Positions 173-25,469 of a stretch of 32,000 nucleotides of DNA are shown piece by piece. The DNA is taken from contig CP023991.1 in the NCBI GenBank assembly GCA_003516025.1, forward strand, positions 781,374 through 813,373, given 5' to 3'. The notes below the pieces were generated by a model. It had not been told where the DNA came from. It searched no databases and worked only from the letters and a program-made list of their open reading frames with translations. This stretch comes from Candidatus Saccharimonadota bacterium. Its GTDB lineage: Bacteria; Patescibacteriota; Saccharimonadia; Saccharimonadales; UBA4665. Position 1 is the stretch's first letter. Each line of letters opens with the position of its first letter. The position numbers were made by a program, and so were the translations under genes.

Positions 173-922
173 ATGCGATATGTCGCTTTAACTGCGGCTA
201 CTCTTAGTAGTGCCTTTTTATTGACACTGGGTAGTCCTGCGTTACCTACAGCATCATCAACCGATGCGGATGGCAATAGCGCGAACAAAACCACAAATAT
301 TACAAAACTCACGACTTCGAAAGTTCTGCTTGCCAGCCAGGCAAAAACTCCAAAAACGGCAGCCACTAATGATGCGGCACCCGTACAGCAGCCTGAAGCG
401 CCACAACCAAATATGATTACTGTGGCTCCTGGTGATACGCTCAGCAGCATCGCCGAAGCGAATGGCACGACATTCAAACGATTGTTCGACGCCAATGAAA
501 CTGTCAAAGACCCCAATGTTATCTACCCCGCCGATCAATTGCGGATTCCAACCGCCGACGAGCAACTCGCTGACCGCCCTCTGCCTGCCGCGGCACCAGC
601 CGTCGTAGCACCCGCACCTGTTGTCGCAGCGGCACCAGCCCCAGTTCGAATCCCAGCCACGTCAAATGCCCCAGCAGTCGCTGATGGCAGCGTCTGGGAC
701 CGCTTAGCCCAGTGTGAAGCTGGCGGTAACTGGGCCATCAATACCGGCAACGGTTTTTACGGCGGCCTCCAGTTTACCCAAAGTAGCTGGCAAGCCGTAG
801 GCGGCTCTGGCATGCCCAACCAGGCCAGCCGCGAAGAACAGGTTTTACGCGGCCAAATGCTTCAAGCCCGCCAGGGTTGGGGCGCATGGCCCGCCTGTAG
901 CGCCAAGCTCGGCTTATATTAA
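173..922 (+). CDS. Secreted LysM + Rpf-like (resuscitation-promoting-factor / transglycosylase-like) cell-wall hydrolase
   Basis: 249-aa ORF with GGGAGG 9 nt upstream of the ATG. It has a hydrophobic signal-like N-terminus, a LysM-like segment (ITVAPGDTLSSIAEANG...ADQLRIP) and an Ala/Pro linker. The C-terminus carries the Rpf signature WDRLAQCEAGGNWAINTGNGFYGGLQFTQSSWQAVGG...GWGAWPACSAKLG. Confidence 0.85.
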   Translation: MRYVALTAATLSSAFLLTLGSPALPTASSTDADGNSANKTTNITKLTTSKVLLASQAKTPKTAATNDAAPVQQPEAPQPNMITVAPGDTLSSIAEANGTTFKRLFDANETVKDPNVIYPADQLRIPTADEQLADRPLPAAAPAVVAPAPVVAAAPAPVRIPATSNAPAVADGSVWDRLAQCEAGGNWAINTGNGFYGGLQFTQSSWQAVGGSGMPNQASREEQVLRGQMLQARQGWGAWPACSAKLGLY

Positions 923-1011: not shown

Positions 1012-2040
1012 ATGCAACTGTCTGATTTCCACTACAACGTACCCGACGAGCTAATTGCCGACCAACCGCCGGAAGTGCGCGGCGATGCCCGCCTTCTGGC
1101 GCTCAACCGCGAAACAGGTGAAATCCAAGATAAGAATTACGGCGACATAGTTGAATTCTTAAACCCTGGCGACGTTTTAATAATTAATGATACAAAAGTA
1201 ATCAAAGCCCGCTTGATGGCCCGCAAATCTTCCGGCGGCGAACGCGAGCTGGTACTGGTGGAAAAACATGGTTCCACCGACGACTGGCACCTGCATAAGG
1301 TTATCTACCGGCGGCGGCTGAAGCCCGGCGACGAACTGTTTGTCGGACCGTACGCGCTGACTGTCGAAGAAATTATCGGCGATGGCATAGCGGTAGTTCG
1401 CAGTGGAAAAGATTTATTAGAGATAGCCGGTGAATACGGTTCGGTTCCCCTGCCGCCCTATATGCGCCGCGAAGCCACTGAAGCCGACACCGAGCGTTAC
1501 CAAACCGTCTTTGCCCGAGAGCAGGGTTCGGTGGCAGCGCCCACTGCCAGCTTGAACATGACCGAAGAAACACTGTCTAAACTTCGTAAAAAAGGCGTGA
1601 GCGTACAGTACGCCACACTGCATGTCGGACTTGGCACTTTCCTGCCTATCAGGGTTGATGATGTTGCCGAGCACAAAATGCACAAAGAATACTTTGAGGT
1701 TCCCGAAGAAACCGTCCGGGTCATGCAAACCGCGAAGCAGAACGGTAAGCGCGTCGTGGCTCTCGGTACTACTATCACCCGGACCCTGGAATACTGCCAC
1801 CAGCAGATTCTGTACGAAACCCCGCAGCAGCTGACCGGTGAAGCCGATATATTCATGTATCCCGGCTACGAGTTCAAAGTTATAGACGCCCTGCTGACCA
1901 ACTTTCATGCTCCGGAATCAACGGTCCTCATGCTAACCGCCGCCTTTGCCGGCTGGAACAAGCTCAAACCTGCCTACGAACACGCGGTCGCGGAACAGTA
2001 CCACTTTTTCAGTTACGGCGACTCGATGTTTATCTACTGA
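1012..2040 (+). CDS. queA: S-adenosylmethionine:tRNA ribosyltransferase-isomerase
   Basis: 342-aa ORF. The N-terminus MQLSDFHYNVPDELIADQPPEVRGDARLL and the length are typical of QueA. Confidence 0.93.
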   Translation: MQLSDFHYNVPDELIADQPPEVRGDARLLALNRETGEIQDKNYGDIVEFLNPGDVLIINDTKVIKARLMARKSSGGERELVLVEKHGSTDDWHLHKVIYRRRLKPGDELFVGPYALTVEEIIGDGIAVVRSGKDLLEIAGEYGSVPLPPYMRREATEADTERYQTVFAREQGSVAAPTASLNMTEETLSKLRKKGVSVQYATLHVGLGTFLPIRVDDVAEHKMHKEYFEVPEETVRVMQTAKQNGKRVVALGTTITRTLEYCHQQILYETPQQLTGEADIFMYPGYEFKVIDALLTNFHAPESTVLMLTAAFAGWNKLKPAYEHAVAEQYHFFSYGDSMFIY

Positions 2041-2092
2041 TACTTTCCAAAACCTGGTATCGACCATCTGTCATGGTTTGCAATTTATATCA

Positions 2093-2752
2093 TTATTTGA
2101 CGAAATACTCCAGGAGTTTACCGTACTCAGCATCCGACAGAGCCGCGTCAGCTACCGACGCGATTGCCGATTCGTCATTAAAAGCGACTGCGAAACCTGC
2201 GGCGGTCGCCAGCAAACGGTCACTGGCACCATCGCCTACAATCGCCACGTCCTGTGAACGGATATTCATTTCACTGCACCACTCGGCTAGTTTGGCAACC
2301 TTGAATTCCGCGTCGTTCATACGTGTCGTGATATATTTCAGCACCCCATGTTCATTAAAATTTAATGAATTATTAGAAGCATAACGTGTAATACCCAACT
2401 CTTCGGCCATGTGACGTACCAGCAAATCCATTGAGCCCGACAGCAAGGCGACTTCAAAGCCGCGGTTTTGTAACTCCGTAACGGTTTCACGGGCACCTTC
2501 AAAGTAAGTGTAGTTATAAATGAGACTTTCAATCGCCTCACGGGTCGGCTCGGAGCGCTCGTTATATAGGGCGCATAGTATTTCCTGCCCCTGCTGGTCG
2601 GTTATGATTCCCTCGCGGCCCCAGCGCATTAACACTTCGTCCTCTTCATCAGTCACACCCATGGATTTGTTGAGCTCCTGCCATGAATTATCACGGATAA
2701 GCGTCTTGTTTACATCAAATATGATTAACTTCGGCGTGAATGTATCTGCCAT
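2093..2752 (-). CDS. HAD-superfamily hydrolase (SerB/PSPase-like subfamily IB)
   Basis: 219 aa with a GGAGGG SD. Motif I is IIFDVNKTLI and the C-terminal motif is GDGASD. The second acidic residue of motif I is Asn (DVN rather than DxD). Confidence 0.75.
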   Translation of the reverse strand: MADTFTPKLIIFDVNKTLIRDNSWQELNKSMGVTDEEDEVLMRWGREGIITDQQGQEILCALYNERSEPTREAIESLIYNYTYFEGARETVTELQNRGFEVALLSGSMDLLVRHMAEELGITRYASNNSLNFNEHGVLKYITTRMNDAEFKVAKLAEWCSEMNIRSQDVAIVGDGASDRLLATAAGFAVAFNDESAIASVADAALSDAEYGKLLEYFVK

Positions 2753-2860
2753 AAGGTTCCCTCCGGTATTGCTTTATGGTAATCAGTATAGGCGGCCCTC
2801 GGGTGAGGCGGAAGTATATATTTCACAGCGTATACTATTAGCTATAACCAGGAGGTAGCC

Positions 2861-3253
2861 ATGGAAGGTTTTGTATCATCATTCAGTGGATTTTCCGTTA
2901 ACGACATTGCGGCGGCTCATACGTTTTATATTAATACGCTCGGTCTGACGCTGCAGGATGAGAATATGGGCCTGCATATAGTATTGCCTGGCGGTCAAAC
3001 CGTATTCATATATGAAAAGCCGGATCACCAGCCTGCCAGCTTTACCATACTCAATTTTGTGGTTACTAATATTGATGCGGTTGTCGACGAGTTAAAAACT
3101 CGTGGCGTCCGTTTTGAACGCTACGATTTGGGCAACGGCGCCGCGCAAGACGAAAATGACATACTACGGGGACTTAGCGCCGGTATGGGCCCGGATATCG
3201 CCTGGTTCAAAGATCCTGCCGGTAATGTCCTGTCTGTACTCCAAAGCGAGTAA
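2861..3253 (+). CDS. VOC / glyoxalase-bleomycin resistance family protein
   Basis: 130 aa with an AGGAGG SD. The pattern FSVNDIAAAHTFYINTLGL...FKDPAGNVLSV is typical of the VOC fold. Confidence 0.75.
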   Translation: MEGFVSSFSGFSVNDIAAAHTFYINTLGLTLQDENMGLHIVLPGGQTVFIYEKPDHQPASFTILNFVVTNIDAVVDELKTRGVRFERYDLGNGAAQDENDILRGLSAGMGPDIAWFKDPAGNVLSVLQSE

Positions 3254-3267
3254 ATACGCTATAATAA

Positions 3268-5171
<1,904 letters not shown>

Positions 5172-19376: not shown

Positions 19377-19454
19377 TCTTTCAATTATAGCAGCCGTGAC
19401 TGGCGCAAAGCTGAAAAGCCGTTGTCTTTTATGCACAAACAGGCAGGCGTACTA

Positions 19455-19482
19455 TTGCTTTTTTTAAGTTTTTTGGTATAAT
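19455..19482 (+). promoter_or_regulatory. Strong sigma70-type promoter with extended -10 (TTGCTT-N16-TGgTATAAT) reading into the island
   Basis: TTGCTT at 19455-19460, TG at 19474-19475 and TATAAT at 19477-19482. It is divergent from ctpA. It predicts a ~190-nt leader before GTG 19683. Confidence 0.6.
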
Positions 19483-19519
19483 ATGCGTCATTGCTCGGAG
19501 TTTTAACTTCTTGCAATGT

Positions 19520-19553
19520 CATTTGACAAGCAGATACTTTAGAATTGAGACAA
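19520..19553. repeat. Left inverted arm of the island (CATTTGACAAGCAGATACTTTAGAATTGAGACAA)
   Basis: 19524-19553 can pair with 20423-20448 as 13 + 4 + 7 = 24 bp, with one internal loop and one 2-nt bulge. The core TGACAAGCAGATA is present three times in the island. Confidence 0.7.
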
Positions 19554-19682
19554 TCTCATACGGGCTGAGCTCTAAGACCATTACTTACATAAGTGGTTTT
19601 ATAGTTCAGTCTGTGTGTTCAGATAACACGCGCTCGCAGCTTGCGGGAGGCATACCGCCTACTGAATAGAGGGGAAACTACC

Positions 19683-20285
19683 GTGTCCAACGGAACCAAC
19701 GCCCGGCAGTCGGTCATGTCGTTCTTCAACAGCACGGTCTACCTGACGCTCAAGGCGCCGGTGGAGGGCCCGCAGTTCGACTTCGTGATGAGCGAGGCGT
19801 CCCGCATGGTGAACACCCTCTTCGCGCCGGTCATCGGCCAGCTCCCCACATCGGCGGACAAGACGACCGAGTCGTCGGAGACCCGTTCCGAGCCGGTGAA
19901 GCTCACCAAGACCTACCGCACCGCCAAGGGCAACCTGACCATCGAGGTCAAGGTCACCCTGCGGCAGCCGATCGATCGGAACCAGGTCTACTCGGCGCTC
20001 GAGCACTCCCTGTCGGAGACGCACTCGCTCGTGCAGTTCGTCGAGATGGAGATGCCCACCAAGGAGCAGGTCATCGACAACATGGTCGGCGACCTGGTCG
20101 ACTCCATCTTCCCCGGCGGCGCGAGCTTCCTCAAGGACGTGATCGGCGAGGACGCCCTCAGCGACCTCCTGGCCGGCGGCAGTTCCCAGTCCGGTTCGGA
20201 CTTCTTCGGCGAGAGCTTCACCAGCCTCCTCGGCAGGACCGCTACCCGTTCCTCCGGCATGCCCGGCTTCCCGCCCAGCCGCTGA
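19683..20285 (+). CDS. Orphan 200-aa protein with foreign, GC3-saturated (actinobacterial-type) codon usage
   Basis: GTG 19683 with GAGGGG (19669-19674) 8 nt upstream; an alternative ATG lies at 19716. By my count only about 8 of ~200 codons end in A/T. The ORF tool's TTG 19641 start is less likely. I recognise no family motif. The C-terminal third is acidic and Gly/Ser-rich. Confidence 0.65.
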   Translation: MSNGTNARQSVMSFFNSTVYLTLKAPVEGPQFDFVMSEASRMVNTLFAPVIGQLPTSADKTTESSETRSEPVKLTKTYRTAKGNLTIEVKVTLRQPIDRNQVYSALEHSLSETHSLVQFVEMEMPTKEQVIDNMVGDLVDSIFPGGASFLKDVIGEDALSDLLAGGSSQSGSDFFGESFTSLLGRTATRSSGMPGFPPSR

Positions 20286-20324
20286 CCCCCCTTCCTCTGA
20301 CCTGACAGGAGAAAACGGTGCCGC

Positions 20325-20408
20325 TTATTCGTGGACCCCCGCAGTATTCGTGGACATGACAAGCAGATAAGCGAATAGCCTTAAGGTTGTCATGGGTACT
20401 TTTACCAT
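20325..20408 (-). CDS. Candidate small ORF (27 aa, MVKVPMTTLRLFAYLLVMSTNTAGVHE) with strong SD
   Basis: On the minus strand GGGAG (reverse complement of 20416-20420) lies 7 nt upstream of the ATG (20408). The ORF has a hydrophobic core. Its start codon lies in a local hairpin (20391-20409). It is too short to validate statistically. Confidence 0.3.
   Translation of the reverse strand: MVKVPMTTLRLFAYLLVMSTNTAGVHE
20326..20355 (+). repeat. Two direct copies of TATTCGTGGAC spaced 19 bp apart
   Basis: Copies at 20326-20336 and 20345-20355. The second copy runs into the 19-bp hairpin arm. Confidence 0.6.
20352..20370. repeat. Internal arm GGACATGACAAGCAGATAA, perfect 19-bp inverted repeat partner of 20435-20453
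   Basis: The exact reverse complement lies at 20435-20453, leaving a 64-nt loop that contains the small-ORF start region. Confidence 0.85.
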
Positions 20409-20422
20409 GTGTTTTCTCCCTT

Positions 20423-20453
20423 TTGTCTCTTCTTTTATCTGCTTGTCATGTCC
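20423..20453. repeat. Right inverted arm of the island (TTGTCTCTTCTTTTATCTGCTTGTCATGTCC)
   Basis: It pairs either with the local arm at 20352-20370 (19 bp) or with the distal left arm at 19524-19553 (24 bp). Confidence 0.8.
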
Positions 20454-20503
20454 GCTTCTACGATTACATCATCGTACTGATGAGTCCCTCAGGACGAAAA
20501 GCG
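20453..20503 (+). ncRNA. Type III hammerhead self-cleaving ribozyme motif
   Basis: Helix III pairs CGCUU (20453-57) with AAGCG (20499-503). C17 is at 20458. Helix I pairs UACGAU (20459-64) with AUCGUA (20471-76) around the loop UACAUC. The core CUGAUGA is at 20477-83. Helix II pairs GUCC with GGAC around the loop CUCA (20484-95). GAA is at 20496-98. All invariant core positions, the G10.1-C11.1 pair and the A15.1-U16.1 pair are present. Confidence 0.8.
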
Positions 20504-20510
20504 TTTGCAT

Positions 20511-20543
20511 TACAATAACCGCCATATACTGGCGGTTATTGTA
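20511..20543. terminator. 13-bp perfect hairpin, probable terminator/insulator between the island (+) and the pcsB-like gene (-)
   Basis: TACAATAACCGCC (20511-23) pairs with GGCGGTTATTGTA (20531-43) around a 7-nt loop. The flanks are only moderately U-rich on either strand. Confidence 0.5.
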
Positions 20544-20556
20544 ATCTGTTATTAGC

Positions 20557-24761: not shown

Positions 24762-25469
24762 CTAATTGCCGCCGAGGAATGGCAAGTCCTGCAAAGAGGT
24801 TGGGCCGCCAATGGAAAGCCAGTAAAGAATGATACCGGCTACAATTAATCCGGCAGCTATGAGAGCCACGATATACCACAGCTTGTTAGAGCGCCGGGCA
24901 CCCCATACCTGCCGGGTATTAGCACTATATATCGTCTGAGGGCTGTTTTCTGATTCTGCTTGAGCCACGAAGGTATTTTCTGTGACCGTGCCGGTATCTG
25001 CGGCGTTAGCCGCCGGCTCCACGGGCTGGATTGGCGCAGCCGTCAGCATGACGGGCGGCGCCAAAGGCTGGGCAGCGGGTGCCGGCGCAGGCGTAGGTGA
25101 TGGCACGAACTGCGCAGGTGCCGGTGGTTGGGATGCCTGGTACGGGGCAGCAGGCTGGGCCGGCGGTTGCGGGGCGGCCACTGGTACCTGGGGCGCGTAA
25201 TTTGGCACGATTGCCGGAGCAGCCTGTACCTGTTGTACCGGCACAGGCTGAGGTGGTTGTGGTGTTTGAGATACCGGCGGAGTCATCCGCACGGGAGCGC
25301 CCGGCTGCTGAATTACGAGCGGCTGTGGCGCCGGAACCGGCGCTTCAATAGGAATCGGCTGGGCATACTCAGGCGCCTGCGGCTGGCCTGGCAAATGAGG
25401 CACAGAACCCGGCGGCGCCACAGGAGTGCCGGAAGGTATATTAATTGGATTAGTCGGATTTTCCGGCAT
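24762..25469 (-). CDS. Proline-rich low-complexity protein with single C-terminal transmembrane helix
   Basis: 235 aa. About 170 residues are Pro/Ala/Gln/Val-rich, followed by the TM segment LWYIVALIAAGLIVAGIILYWL. TATAAT (reverse complement of 25479-25484) lies 9 nt upstream of the ATG. Confidence 0.55.
   Translation of the reverse strand: MPENPTNPINIPSGTPVAPPGSVPHLPGQPQAPEYAQPIPIEAPVPAPQPLVIQQPGAPVRMTPPVSQTPQPPQPVPVQQVQAAPAIVPNYAPQVPVAAPQPPAQPAAPYQASQPPAPAQFVPSPTPAPAPAAQPLAPPVMLTAAPIQPVEPAANAADTGTVTENTFVAQAESENSPQTIYSANTRQVWGARRSNKLWYIVALIAAGLIVAGIILYWLSIGGPTSLQDLPFLGGN

Follow-up and report, generated by a model that had tools for sequence, protein, structure and literature searches.

A candidate family of expression cassettes with GC3-rich orphan genes in Saccharimonadales

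How does a gene in which nearly every codon ends in G or C come to stand, alone on its strand, in DNA of 52% GC? The question is raised by an island of about 1.1 kb in a 32,000-nucleotide stretch of contig CP023991.1 (positions 781,374–813,373, forward strand), which we call the window and number from its first letter, and which comes from a Saccharimonadales (Saccharibacteria/TM7) genome of ~1.005 Mb. Saccharibacteria are obligate epibionts with genomes of ~1 Mb, and to our knowledge almost nothing is known about their accessory genes and RNA biology. The island lies between ctpA and an ftsE-ftsX-pcsB-like operon, and its 200-codon open reading frame (ORF) is the sole plus-strand gene from ~15934 to at least 31376 (~15 kb), much as the earlier note on this DNA had it (the only plus-strand unit in about 16 kb). 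That note proposed a very recent acquisition from a high-GC donor, a small non-autonomous mobile or addiction cassette, or an assembly chimera. We give a slightly better than even chance that it belongs to a cassette family not described before, each member of which is an expression unit complete in itself: a conserved AT-rich shell, which would stabilise or process RNA, surrounds exchangeable orphan ORFs rich in G and C at the third codon position (GC3).

Only the third codon position of the ORF is foreign; GC1, GC2 and amino-acid usage are native-like. Read from its GTG, the ORF has GC1 0.56, GC2 0.45 and GC3 0.96 (0.935 if read from an upstream TTG at 19641), and exactly 8 of its 200 codons end in A or T (GGA, GGT, GCT, ACA, AGT, GAT and CGT twice), the very codons of an earlier count by eye of about eight. 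GC3 of the 24 native ORFs of the window ranges from 0.532 to 0.629 (mean 0.585, standard deviation 0.028), which places the island ORF at z = 13.2, and its standing as an outlier thus holds under proper computation. The GC-rich block, previously put at ~19627 to ~20322, was found at nearly the same place (Table 1), with GC of at least 0.55 inside and 0.33–0.45 on either side. The first two codon positions are comparable to those of native genes (GC1 ~0.58, GC2 ~0.40). The summed frequency of Gly, Ala, Arg and Pro (GARP) is 0.23 in the 200-aa protein, 0.28 in all 12 cargo proteins described below and 0.26 in native window proteins, and that of Phe, Tyr, Met, Ile, Asn and Lys (FYMINK) is 0.22, 0.22 and 0.24, respectively. 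Genes of genomes with GC3 of about 0.95 are said, after Muto and Osawa in 1987 and later GARP/FYMINK work, to have GC1 of ~0.7, GC2 of ~0.5 and GARP well above 0.35. The folding energy of the ORF mRNA is −252 kcal/mol, as against −182 kcal/mol for a native gene segment of equal length (40% more stable).

The ORF is enclosed by a series of non-coding elements (Table 1). The extended −10 element, inverted arms, hammerhead and hairpin pointed out before are all present, the hammerhead with a score below its gathering score. A 13-nt motif, TGACAAGCAGATA, begins at 19524 and at 20357 and has an inverted copy at 20436–20448; 0.24 matches per window are expected by chance, and its three copies in the 32-kb window all fall inside the island. 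The long palindrome downstream of the ORF carries a direct copy in its 5′ arm (20356–20369) and the inverted copy in its T-rich 3′ arm (20436–20449). Its base overlaps helix III of the hammerhead by 3–4 nt, and by more in a related cassette on contig L076, an overlap that might gate the cleavage or make it slower. Between the convergent cassette and the pcsB-like gene stands a hairpin that is probably a shared bidirectional terminator. The window promoter was not listed by a consensus promoter scan. The sequence GTCCGC, with which hammerhead helix III also begins, could pair in another register with the first copy of the direct repeat TATTCGTGGAC.

Table 1. Features of the island, in window coordinates (UTR, untranslated region)
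Feature	Position	Strand	Basis or detail
Promoter: −35-like TTGCTT (19455–19460), 16-nt spacer containing TG, extended −10 TGGTATAAT (19474–19482)	19455–19482	+	Read from sequence
P1 hairpin, 5′ end of predicted transcript (CAUUGC-UC-GGAGU...ACUUC-U-GCAAUG)	19486–19519	+	Minimum-energy fold −13.9 kcal/mol, z = −2.0
5′ motif TTGACAAGCAGATA, exact complement of 3′ arm	19523–19536	+	Sequence comparison
P2, long AT-rich 5′ UTR hairpin; cassette-specific sequence, conserved position	19549–19621	+	Folds
GC-rich block (0.55–0.75 GC), ORF and short UTR flanks	~19637–20356	+	40-nt windows
Shine-Dalgarno GAGGGG, 8 nt before GTG	19669–19674	+	Read from sequence
Orphan ORF, 200 aa, GC3 0.96	19683–20285	+	GTG start 19683, stop 20283–20285
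Direct repeat TATTCGTGGAC, two copies 19 nt apart; second copy is base of long hairpin	20326–20355	+	Repeat analysis
Long imperfect palindrome, ~105 nt; arms 20352–20386 and 20419–20453	20350–20455	+	−49.6 kcal/mol, z = −8.5
Putative type III hammerhead (RF00008)	20451–20505	+	43.9 bits, E = 5.7e-8 (1.4 kb search)
16-bp perfect hairpin between convergent cassette and pcsB-like gene	20509–20545		Repeat/hairpin analysis

An Rfam scan of the window gave no family at its gathering score, and in permissive mode the hammerhead alone was credible. Its core is intact, with CUGAUGA at 20477–20483, GAAA at 20496–20499 and a cleavage triplet U-U-C ending at C20458, after which self-cleavage is predicted. 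Helix III (20453–20457/20499–20503; 5 bp, open), helix I (20459–20464/20471–20476; 6 bp) and helix II (20484–20487/20492–20495; 4 bp), the latter two closed by loops, form a three-way junction that is the minimum-energy fold, and the cmscan alignment gives the same helices. A sequence-divergent hammerhead, with triplet GUC, the same core and helix pairing kept, stands at the same position in L076 and in another related contig, L137. The dimensions of the unit (~1.1 kb, a ~200-aa ORF and a type III hammerhead) also led us to consider an Obelisk or viroid-like RNA, which was rejected since the whole unit does not fold as a rod at minimum energy and is found in four assemblies as chromosomal DNA with housekeeping genes on either side. 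Full-text literature searches gave no paper that connects hammerheads or GC3 anomalies with Saccharibacteria or Patescibacteria.

The same shell recurs around other genes. A metagenome scan for the pattern TGGTATAAT-N25–55-TTGACARRCAGA gave at least 120 loci, and true cassettes were recognised on at least eight contigs of 53–60% GC, namely L039 (two cassettes), L128, L063/L072, L076, L137, L085 and L069; the contig L026, discussed below, has the same non-coding design twice in tandem. At least nine complete cassettes besides that of the window are thereby known, around unrelated GC3-rich small ORFs. The order of the parts is constant: extended −10, P1, TTGACAAGCAGA, P2 with the ribosome-binding site, the ORF or ORFs, a T-rich arm, and a hammerhead or hairpin. 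In nine other cassettes TGGTATAAT or TGCTATAAT lies at equal distance from the motif. Most leaders have a P1-like hairpin, with compensatory changes in five of ten pairs (RNAalifold consensus of seven leaders), and hairpins analogous to P2 can be read from the sequences after the motif in L039, L072, L076, L085 and L128. The shell motif of 12 nt is UUGACAAGCAGA, and the T-rich arm after the ORF, UCUGCUUGUCAUG, is its exact complement; the arm ends in TCTGCTTGTCATG and is usually the 3′ half of an imperfect palindrome of ~100 nt (z = −5.8 and −7.7 for the homologous palindromes of L076 and L072). Complementarity between 5′ motif and 3′ arm extends over 12–20 nt in every cassette and variants are mirrored (AGAC for AAGC, AAAC, extensions after CAGA), and the core GACAAGCAGA of the window 5′ motif is invariant or co-varies with the 3′ copy in nine cassettes. 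A plain stable hairpin takes the place of the hammerhead in both cassettes of L039 and in L072.

What these shells enclose is variable. The cargo comprises one to three small ORFs (86–200 aa) with GC3 of 0.69–0.96, compared with ~0.5–0.75 in flanking genes, and, two pairs aside, the encoded proteins have no relation to one another; some are membrane proteins, and none falls into a Pfam family. The motif in cassette context was found at none of 25 other Saccharimonadales loci, three pattern scans of viral contigs gave no cassette-like context, and the family has so far been seen only in a subset of Saccharimonadales. Most of the scan matches listed (~70 loci, L027–L146; Ga0049105, Ga0209255, Ga0066192, Ga0209562) belong to an unrelated eukaryote-like repeat and were discarded; this high-copy repeat is of ~42% GC and by chance contains TGGTATAAT, a conserved 43-nt spacer, TTGACAGACAGAC and then (GACA/GACG)n microsatellites. 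In L039, L076, L085 and L128 (ATTGACAATTGTGGTATAAT) the promoter spacer has, immediately before the extended −10, a partial extra copy of the motif, TTGACAAT, and L069 has two copies; the window promoter has none. The position of the copies hints at a DNA-binding regulator that would recognise TTGACAA at both promoter and leader.

In two pairs of contigs, each from related strains, the shell is retained and the ORF differs, from which we conclude that recombination inside the shell swaps the cargo. L039 and L128 have their genomic context in common and are 98.9% identical to the last base of TTGACAAGCAGA, beyond which they are unrelated. In L076 and L137 identity is 92.5% up to a point 6 nt inside the ORF and resumes at 88.9% starting 6 nt past the stop. 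No nucleotide similarity can be detected between the intervening ORFs, whose proteins are 35% identical. At the conserved residues of this pair, identical codons number 21, compared with 21.5 expected, so that synonymous sites are saturated; because identical codons are no commoner than codon usage predicts, the alleles must be old. The alignments thus point to old alleles in young flanks, with the ORF replaced by recombination in the conserved UTRs and not diversified in place. Rapid in-place diversification, with high nonsynonymous (dN) and low synonymous (dS) divergence, was considered and is ruled out by the saturated synonymous sites. Since the junctions differ between the two pairs, homologous recombination fits better than one site-specific crossover.

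The 200-aa protein of the window cannot be assigned to a family, as had been remarked before: Pfam, PHROG and NCBIfam give none. In a word-indexed search of 5.8 billion clusters it matched only itself, as encoded on a 1,005,352-bp JGI contig, and an exhaustive phmmer search of 1.84 billion representatives returned a single credible relative, P0002, of 177 aa and 29–31% identity, with which it has an HSLSETH-x-LV block in common; a profile built from the two proteins gave no further relatives. P0002 is encoded on the 3.7-kb contig L026, where it is also divergent and adjoins ctpA. The CtpA of L026 is 65% identical to that of the window, closer than any species representative, and the intergenic DNA upstream of the cargo is recognisably homologous in the two. 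GC3 of the L026 ORF is 0.91, as against 0.71–0.76 for its neighbours. Identical codons at residues conserved between the two ORFs (32 observed, 29.4 expected from codon usage) are no commoner than codon usage predicts, and synonymous sites are therefore saturated here too. Because homologous cargo is syntenic in the window and in L026, the very recent import suggested earlier is incompatible with this arrangement. A single old import should have ameliorated since the split of the two lineages, and because both copies keep GC3 above 0.9 at saturated divergence, there has been no amelioration over a long time. GC3 has either been maintained in place, or both lineages keep drawing on a GC3-rich gene pool. 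Correspondingly, in two lineages with 65% CtpA identity the ORF has either been at the ctpA site or been replaced there, time and again, out of one gene pool.

As to what the cargo might do, the fold predicted for the window protein (AlphaFold2, single sequence, predicted local distance difference test (pLDDT) 66.6) consists of a beta-hairpin/helix unit occurring twice, then helices, and a disordered Arg-containing tail, with pLDDT below 50 for residues 165–200; the predicted structure gave no fold match. No match to any of the 12 cargo proteins was found in 50,697 phage or 72,556 plasmid records. Seven of the 12 have short Arg-rich, disordered-looking C-terminal tails (...GRTATRSSGMPGFPPSR, ...NRRS, ...DRIRAPRVAPA; 20230–20282 in the window, and in L026, L039, L072 and L069), which are weakly reminiscent of C-terminal secretion signals.

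In a search of 185,579 species genomes, the best matches of the window CtpA are all from Saccharibacteria (52–60% identity), and these relatives keep the ftsE-ftsX-pcsB-like/ctpA-pyrG order, with a pcsB–ctpA gap of usually 100–400 bp. Whether the ORF is a conserved core gene of the lineage, which the earlier note had named as fatal to its finding, has a divided answer, since the ORF is syntenic in one relative, L026, and the cassette is missing from the gap in 24 other Saccharimonadales loci (species representatives) that cover the site. One other Saccharimonadales genome, L003 (4779–5894), has in its pcsB–ctpA gap an unrelated 371-aa ORF, on the same strand as its neighbours and without the cassette shell; given this insert, insertions may recur at the site. 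In every context seen, the cassette has a divergent gene upstream, and its downstream neighbour is usually convergent.

If the island is a self-contained expression cassette, it would be transcribed from its own promoter as a monocistronic unit starting a few bases past the −10, with P1 at the 5′ terminus of the RNA. The hammerhead would cut after C20458 and leave an mRNA end 3–5 nt past the long hairpin, and the hairpin at 20509–20545 would stop residual read-through and also terminate the convergent pcsB-like gene. With the ribozyme cut setting the 3′ end behind a long hairpin and P1 capping the 5′ end, the shell would define and protect both ends of the mRNA. The extreme GC3 would be actively maintained in the cassette gene pool and not be the fading mark of a recent import. 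The maintaining force may be selection on mRNA or decoding, e.g., for durability, or a GC-biased process linked to recombination; repeated import from an unsampled GC-rich pool is a further candidate, as is, most speculatively, a match to the codon usage of a high-GC host. Fast-turnover factors for interaction with the host or with phages would be the most plausible class of cargo.

Several points weigh against this interpretation. We infer the promoter, the mRNA ends and the ribozyme cleavage from sequence. The 43.9 bits of the window hammerhead are below the Rfam gathering score of 48.5, hence the lack of a gathering-threshold match; that of L076 has just 17.7 bits, and to the type I model only, and a hammerhead is present in three of ~10 cassettes among the matches listed (window, L076 and L137). 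In the window, the 3′ arm pairs with its local 5′ arm at −40.8 kcal/mol and with the 5′ motif at −22.1 kcal/mol, and since the local palindrome out-competes the 5′ motif, closing of the mRNA through its 5′ and 3′ ends is doubtful there. The triple motif could equally be a DNA-level signal. As for the 5′ copy, it may bind a protein, pair in an alternative way or likewise act at the DNA level. In the mRNA of the ORF, structure does not exceed that of its own shuffles (z = −1.3), and selection for added structure there was not detectable. The comparison of GC1 with GC3 has a control of three high-GC3 ORFs, a number too small to be informative, and what a high-GC donor should look like is taken from general knowledge. 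Finally, the sample is small, at least ~11 cassettes, and the taxonomy of most related contigs rests on the shared shell, with a single independent flanking gene, a LysM/transglycosylase gene in L076 that is 82% identical to that of the window (173–922).

An origin of the ORF in a high-GC donor, i.e., the actinobacterial host or its phage or plasmid, whether by recent import or by repeated import into a preferred site, would make GC3 a mirror of the donor. It would account for the GC3 of 0.96, for codon choices (GGC, GAG, AAG, CAG, NNC) that resemble those of high-GC bacteria, for the GC-rich short UTR flanks within the block and for the lack of the cassette in the gaps of the 24 other loci, and a route for host DNA exists, since Actinobacteria are the hosts of cultivated Saccharibacteria and a prophage of the host is able to bind TM7x and, to a limited extent, infect it (PMC13578794). 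We nevertheless consider such an origin quite unlikely, because neither single-sequence nor profile searches of 5.8 billion clusters and 1.8 billion representatives gave a homologue beyond the Saccharibacteria context, and the phage and plasmid records were equally silent for the cargo proteins. The GC1, GC2 and amino-acid usage match the recipient and not a genome of ~70% GC, and the closest relative found, L026, has a cassette with a homologous ORF at its own ctpA-adjacent site, only 29% identical, with saturated synonymous sites and both GC3 values above 0.9. It would also have to be explained why GC-rich cargo is always precisely fitted into the same native AT-rich shell. That recurrence likewise tells against a joining of high-GC DNA to a Saccharibacteria contig during assembly, which the sharp composition boundaries near 19630 and 20360 might suggest, as the design of AT-rich shell and GC-rich cargo is repeated on at least eight other contigs. 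Three independent assemblies, ENA ERZ27293403 (20.6 kb), Logan SRR6241621 (9.7 kb) and JGI 3300004213 (15.4 kb, from a different sample), are 100% identical to the window across both boundaries, and the cluster of the protein includes a member from a 1,005,782-bp NCBI contig, so that the chance of a chimera is practically negligible. A separate and very improbable reading would direct the cassettes at the host: G/C-ending codons would suit actinobacterial hosts since the mRNA or DNA would be delivered and decoded there, with a Saccharibacteria-like amino-acid make-up kept, and the shell would make the message durable for transfer. The idea is drawn solely from the decoupling of GC3 from protein composition, the RNA-protecting shell and the epibiotic lifestyle. 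One conceivable route for such delivery is the relaxase-less type IV secretion system found widely among Patescibacteria (PMC12102498).

Of the mobile or addiction cassette put forward in the earlier note, the cassette part stands, since the shell recurs, and addiction does not, since the frame of the small ORF is not conserved. Mobility at the DNA level, in the manner of integron or pdif modules, would have the 12-nt motif as recombination core, the 3′ palindrome as an attC-like site and a recombinase encoded elsewhere. The L039/L128 junction lies exactly at the motif end, the window ORF is flanked by two direct motif copies plus one inverted, the 3′ imperfect palindrome of ~100 nt resembles attC, two contigs (L026 and L039) have two tandem cassettes, and, as in chromosomal integrons, the cargo consists of small orphan ORFs of distinct composition. 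We still regard it as unlikely. No integrase, recombinase or transposase is encoded in the 32-kb window, neither an empty site nor a circular junction was seen, and the L076/L137 junctions fall at the ORF ends and not at the motif, in keeping with homologous recombination between conserved UTRs. Every cassette comes with its own promoter, conservation continues past the motif on both sides (GCAC-N-TTGACA... and ...TGTCATGTTCGTC) without target-site duplication, and the conserved core TGACAAGCAGA is unlike the attC core, GTTRRRY. A transposon or miniature inverted-repeat element was rejected as well, since conservation extends outside the repeats (promoter and P1 upstream, TGTTCGTC or hammerhead downstream) and there are no flanking direct repeats. 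Addiction would take the form of a type I toxin-antitoxin system of the hok/sok kind, with a hydrophobic peptide read across the 3′ arm as toxin, silenced by pairing of the mRNA ends and activated by 3′ processing. A 43-codon hydrophobic ORF (20387–20518) does overlap the T-rich arm, similar peptides are readable in L076 and L137, and the 5′/3′ complementarity together with a 3′ processing element recalls hok mRNA, which is inhibited by fold-back. However, the frame lacks a start codon in two of nine cassettes (L026b and L039a) and varies from 34 to 207 codons, its hydrophobic reading simply follows from the pyrimidine-rich arm, complementarity to the 5′ motif accounts for the nucleotide conservation, and the unit chiefly encodes a soluble protein of 200 aa; such a system is extremely improbable here.

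The interpretation as a family of expression cassettes can be compared with several known systems. As for integron cassettes and clusters of attC sites lacking integrases (CALINs), the ORFs are small, mostly orphan and off-host in composition, the cargo is strain-variable at a fixed site with occasional tandems, and an imperfect palindrome (about 60–140 nt) follows at the 3′ side. Unlike integron cassettes, each Saccharibacteria unit has its own strong promoter and structured 5′ leader, the 5′ repeat is inverted relative to the 3′ arm, there is no nearby integrase or GTTRRRY core, the units stand single or paired between housekeeping genes, and a ribozyme can follow the palindrome. The putative hammerhead resembles those in the 3′ UTR of rodent Clec2 and the bacterial and phage type III examples of RF00008 in its CUGAUGA...GAAA core, three helices and location downstream of an ORF on the same strand, a location from which self-cleavage would set or regulate the mRNA 3′ end. 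It differs from them in being one part of a multi-part shell common to unrelated ORFs, which has a plain hairpin in most cassettes, and in that the long hairpin shares part of its base with the helix III strand. Correia elements of Neisseria, repetitive extragenic palindromic (REP) sequences, bacterial interspersed mosaic elements (BIME) and comparable intergenic repeats likewise are short inverted repeats that flank genes, supply promoters, form transcript hairpins and affect mRNA processing or stability, but they are high-copy, genome-wide and independent of cargo composition, whereas the window motif is confined to the island and tied to GC3-rich orphan ORFs. Conserved flanks, a sharply bounded divergent ORF and replacement through flank recombination are shared with Neisseria pilE/pilS and with strain-variable effector and immunity islands, although, in contrast to pilE/pilS, no silent donor copies were seen, the cargo is unrelated across cassettes and GC3 is decoupled. 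A classical genomic island from a high-GC donor would likewise stand out locally in GC and GC3, switch strand and be missing from most relatives, but here donor homologues and mobility genes are lacking, GC3 alone is anomalous, and the anomaly persists between anciently diverged syntenic copies.

Should the interpretation prove true, the cassettes would be a natural example of a hammerhead positioned to set a bacterial mRNA 3′ end. They would also present a clean natural case of near-saturated GC3 independent of both genome and protein composition, which bears on the debate over selection, biased gene conversion and transfer. The family would further give a new handle on strain-level variation, and thus on candidate host- and phage-interaction factors, and its shell is an apparently portable, ready-made expression context for bacteria whose genetic tools are just emerging.

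Some features of the wider window are of interest in their own right. The cumulative GC skew of the plus strand is negative along the entire window, and the minus-strand genes are therefore probably co-directional with replication and the cassette head-on. The plus-strand gene at 173–922 encodes a protein of 249 aa that combines a LysM domain with a transglycosylase-like one, PF06737, a type of domain found in resuscitation-promoting factors (Rpf) and best known from Actinobacteria; the protein might serve against the host cell wall, or the gene might be an old acquisition from the host. Apart from the cassette ORF, the compositional outlier of the window, with GC1 0.71 and GC2 0.56, is a 235-aa Pro/Ala/Gln-rich low-complexity protein (24762–25469, minus strand) with a C-terminal membrane anchor and no Pfam family. 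At 1012–5171, queA (PF02547), tgt (PF01702) and a gene for a Vut_1/YhhQ-type queuosine-precursor transporter are clustered. Queuosine at tRNA position 34 alters the decoding of NAC and NAU codons, and NAC is used in 21 of the 22 Asn, Asp, His and Tyr codons of the cassette ORF.

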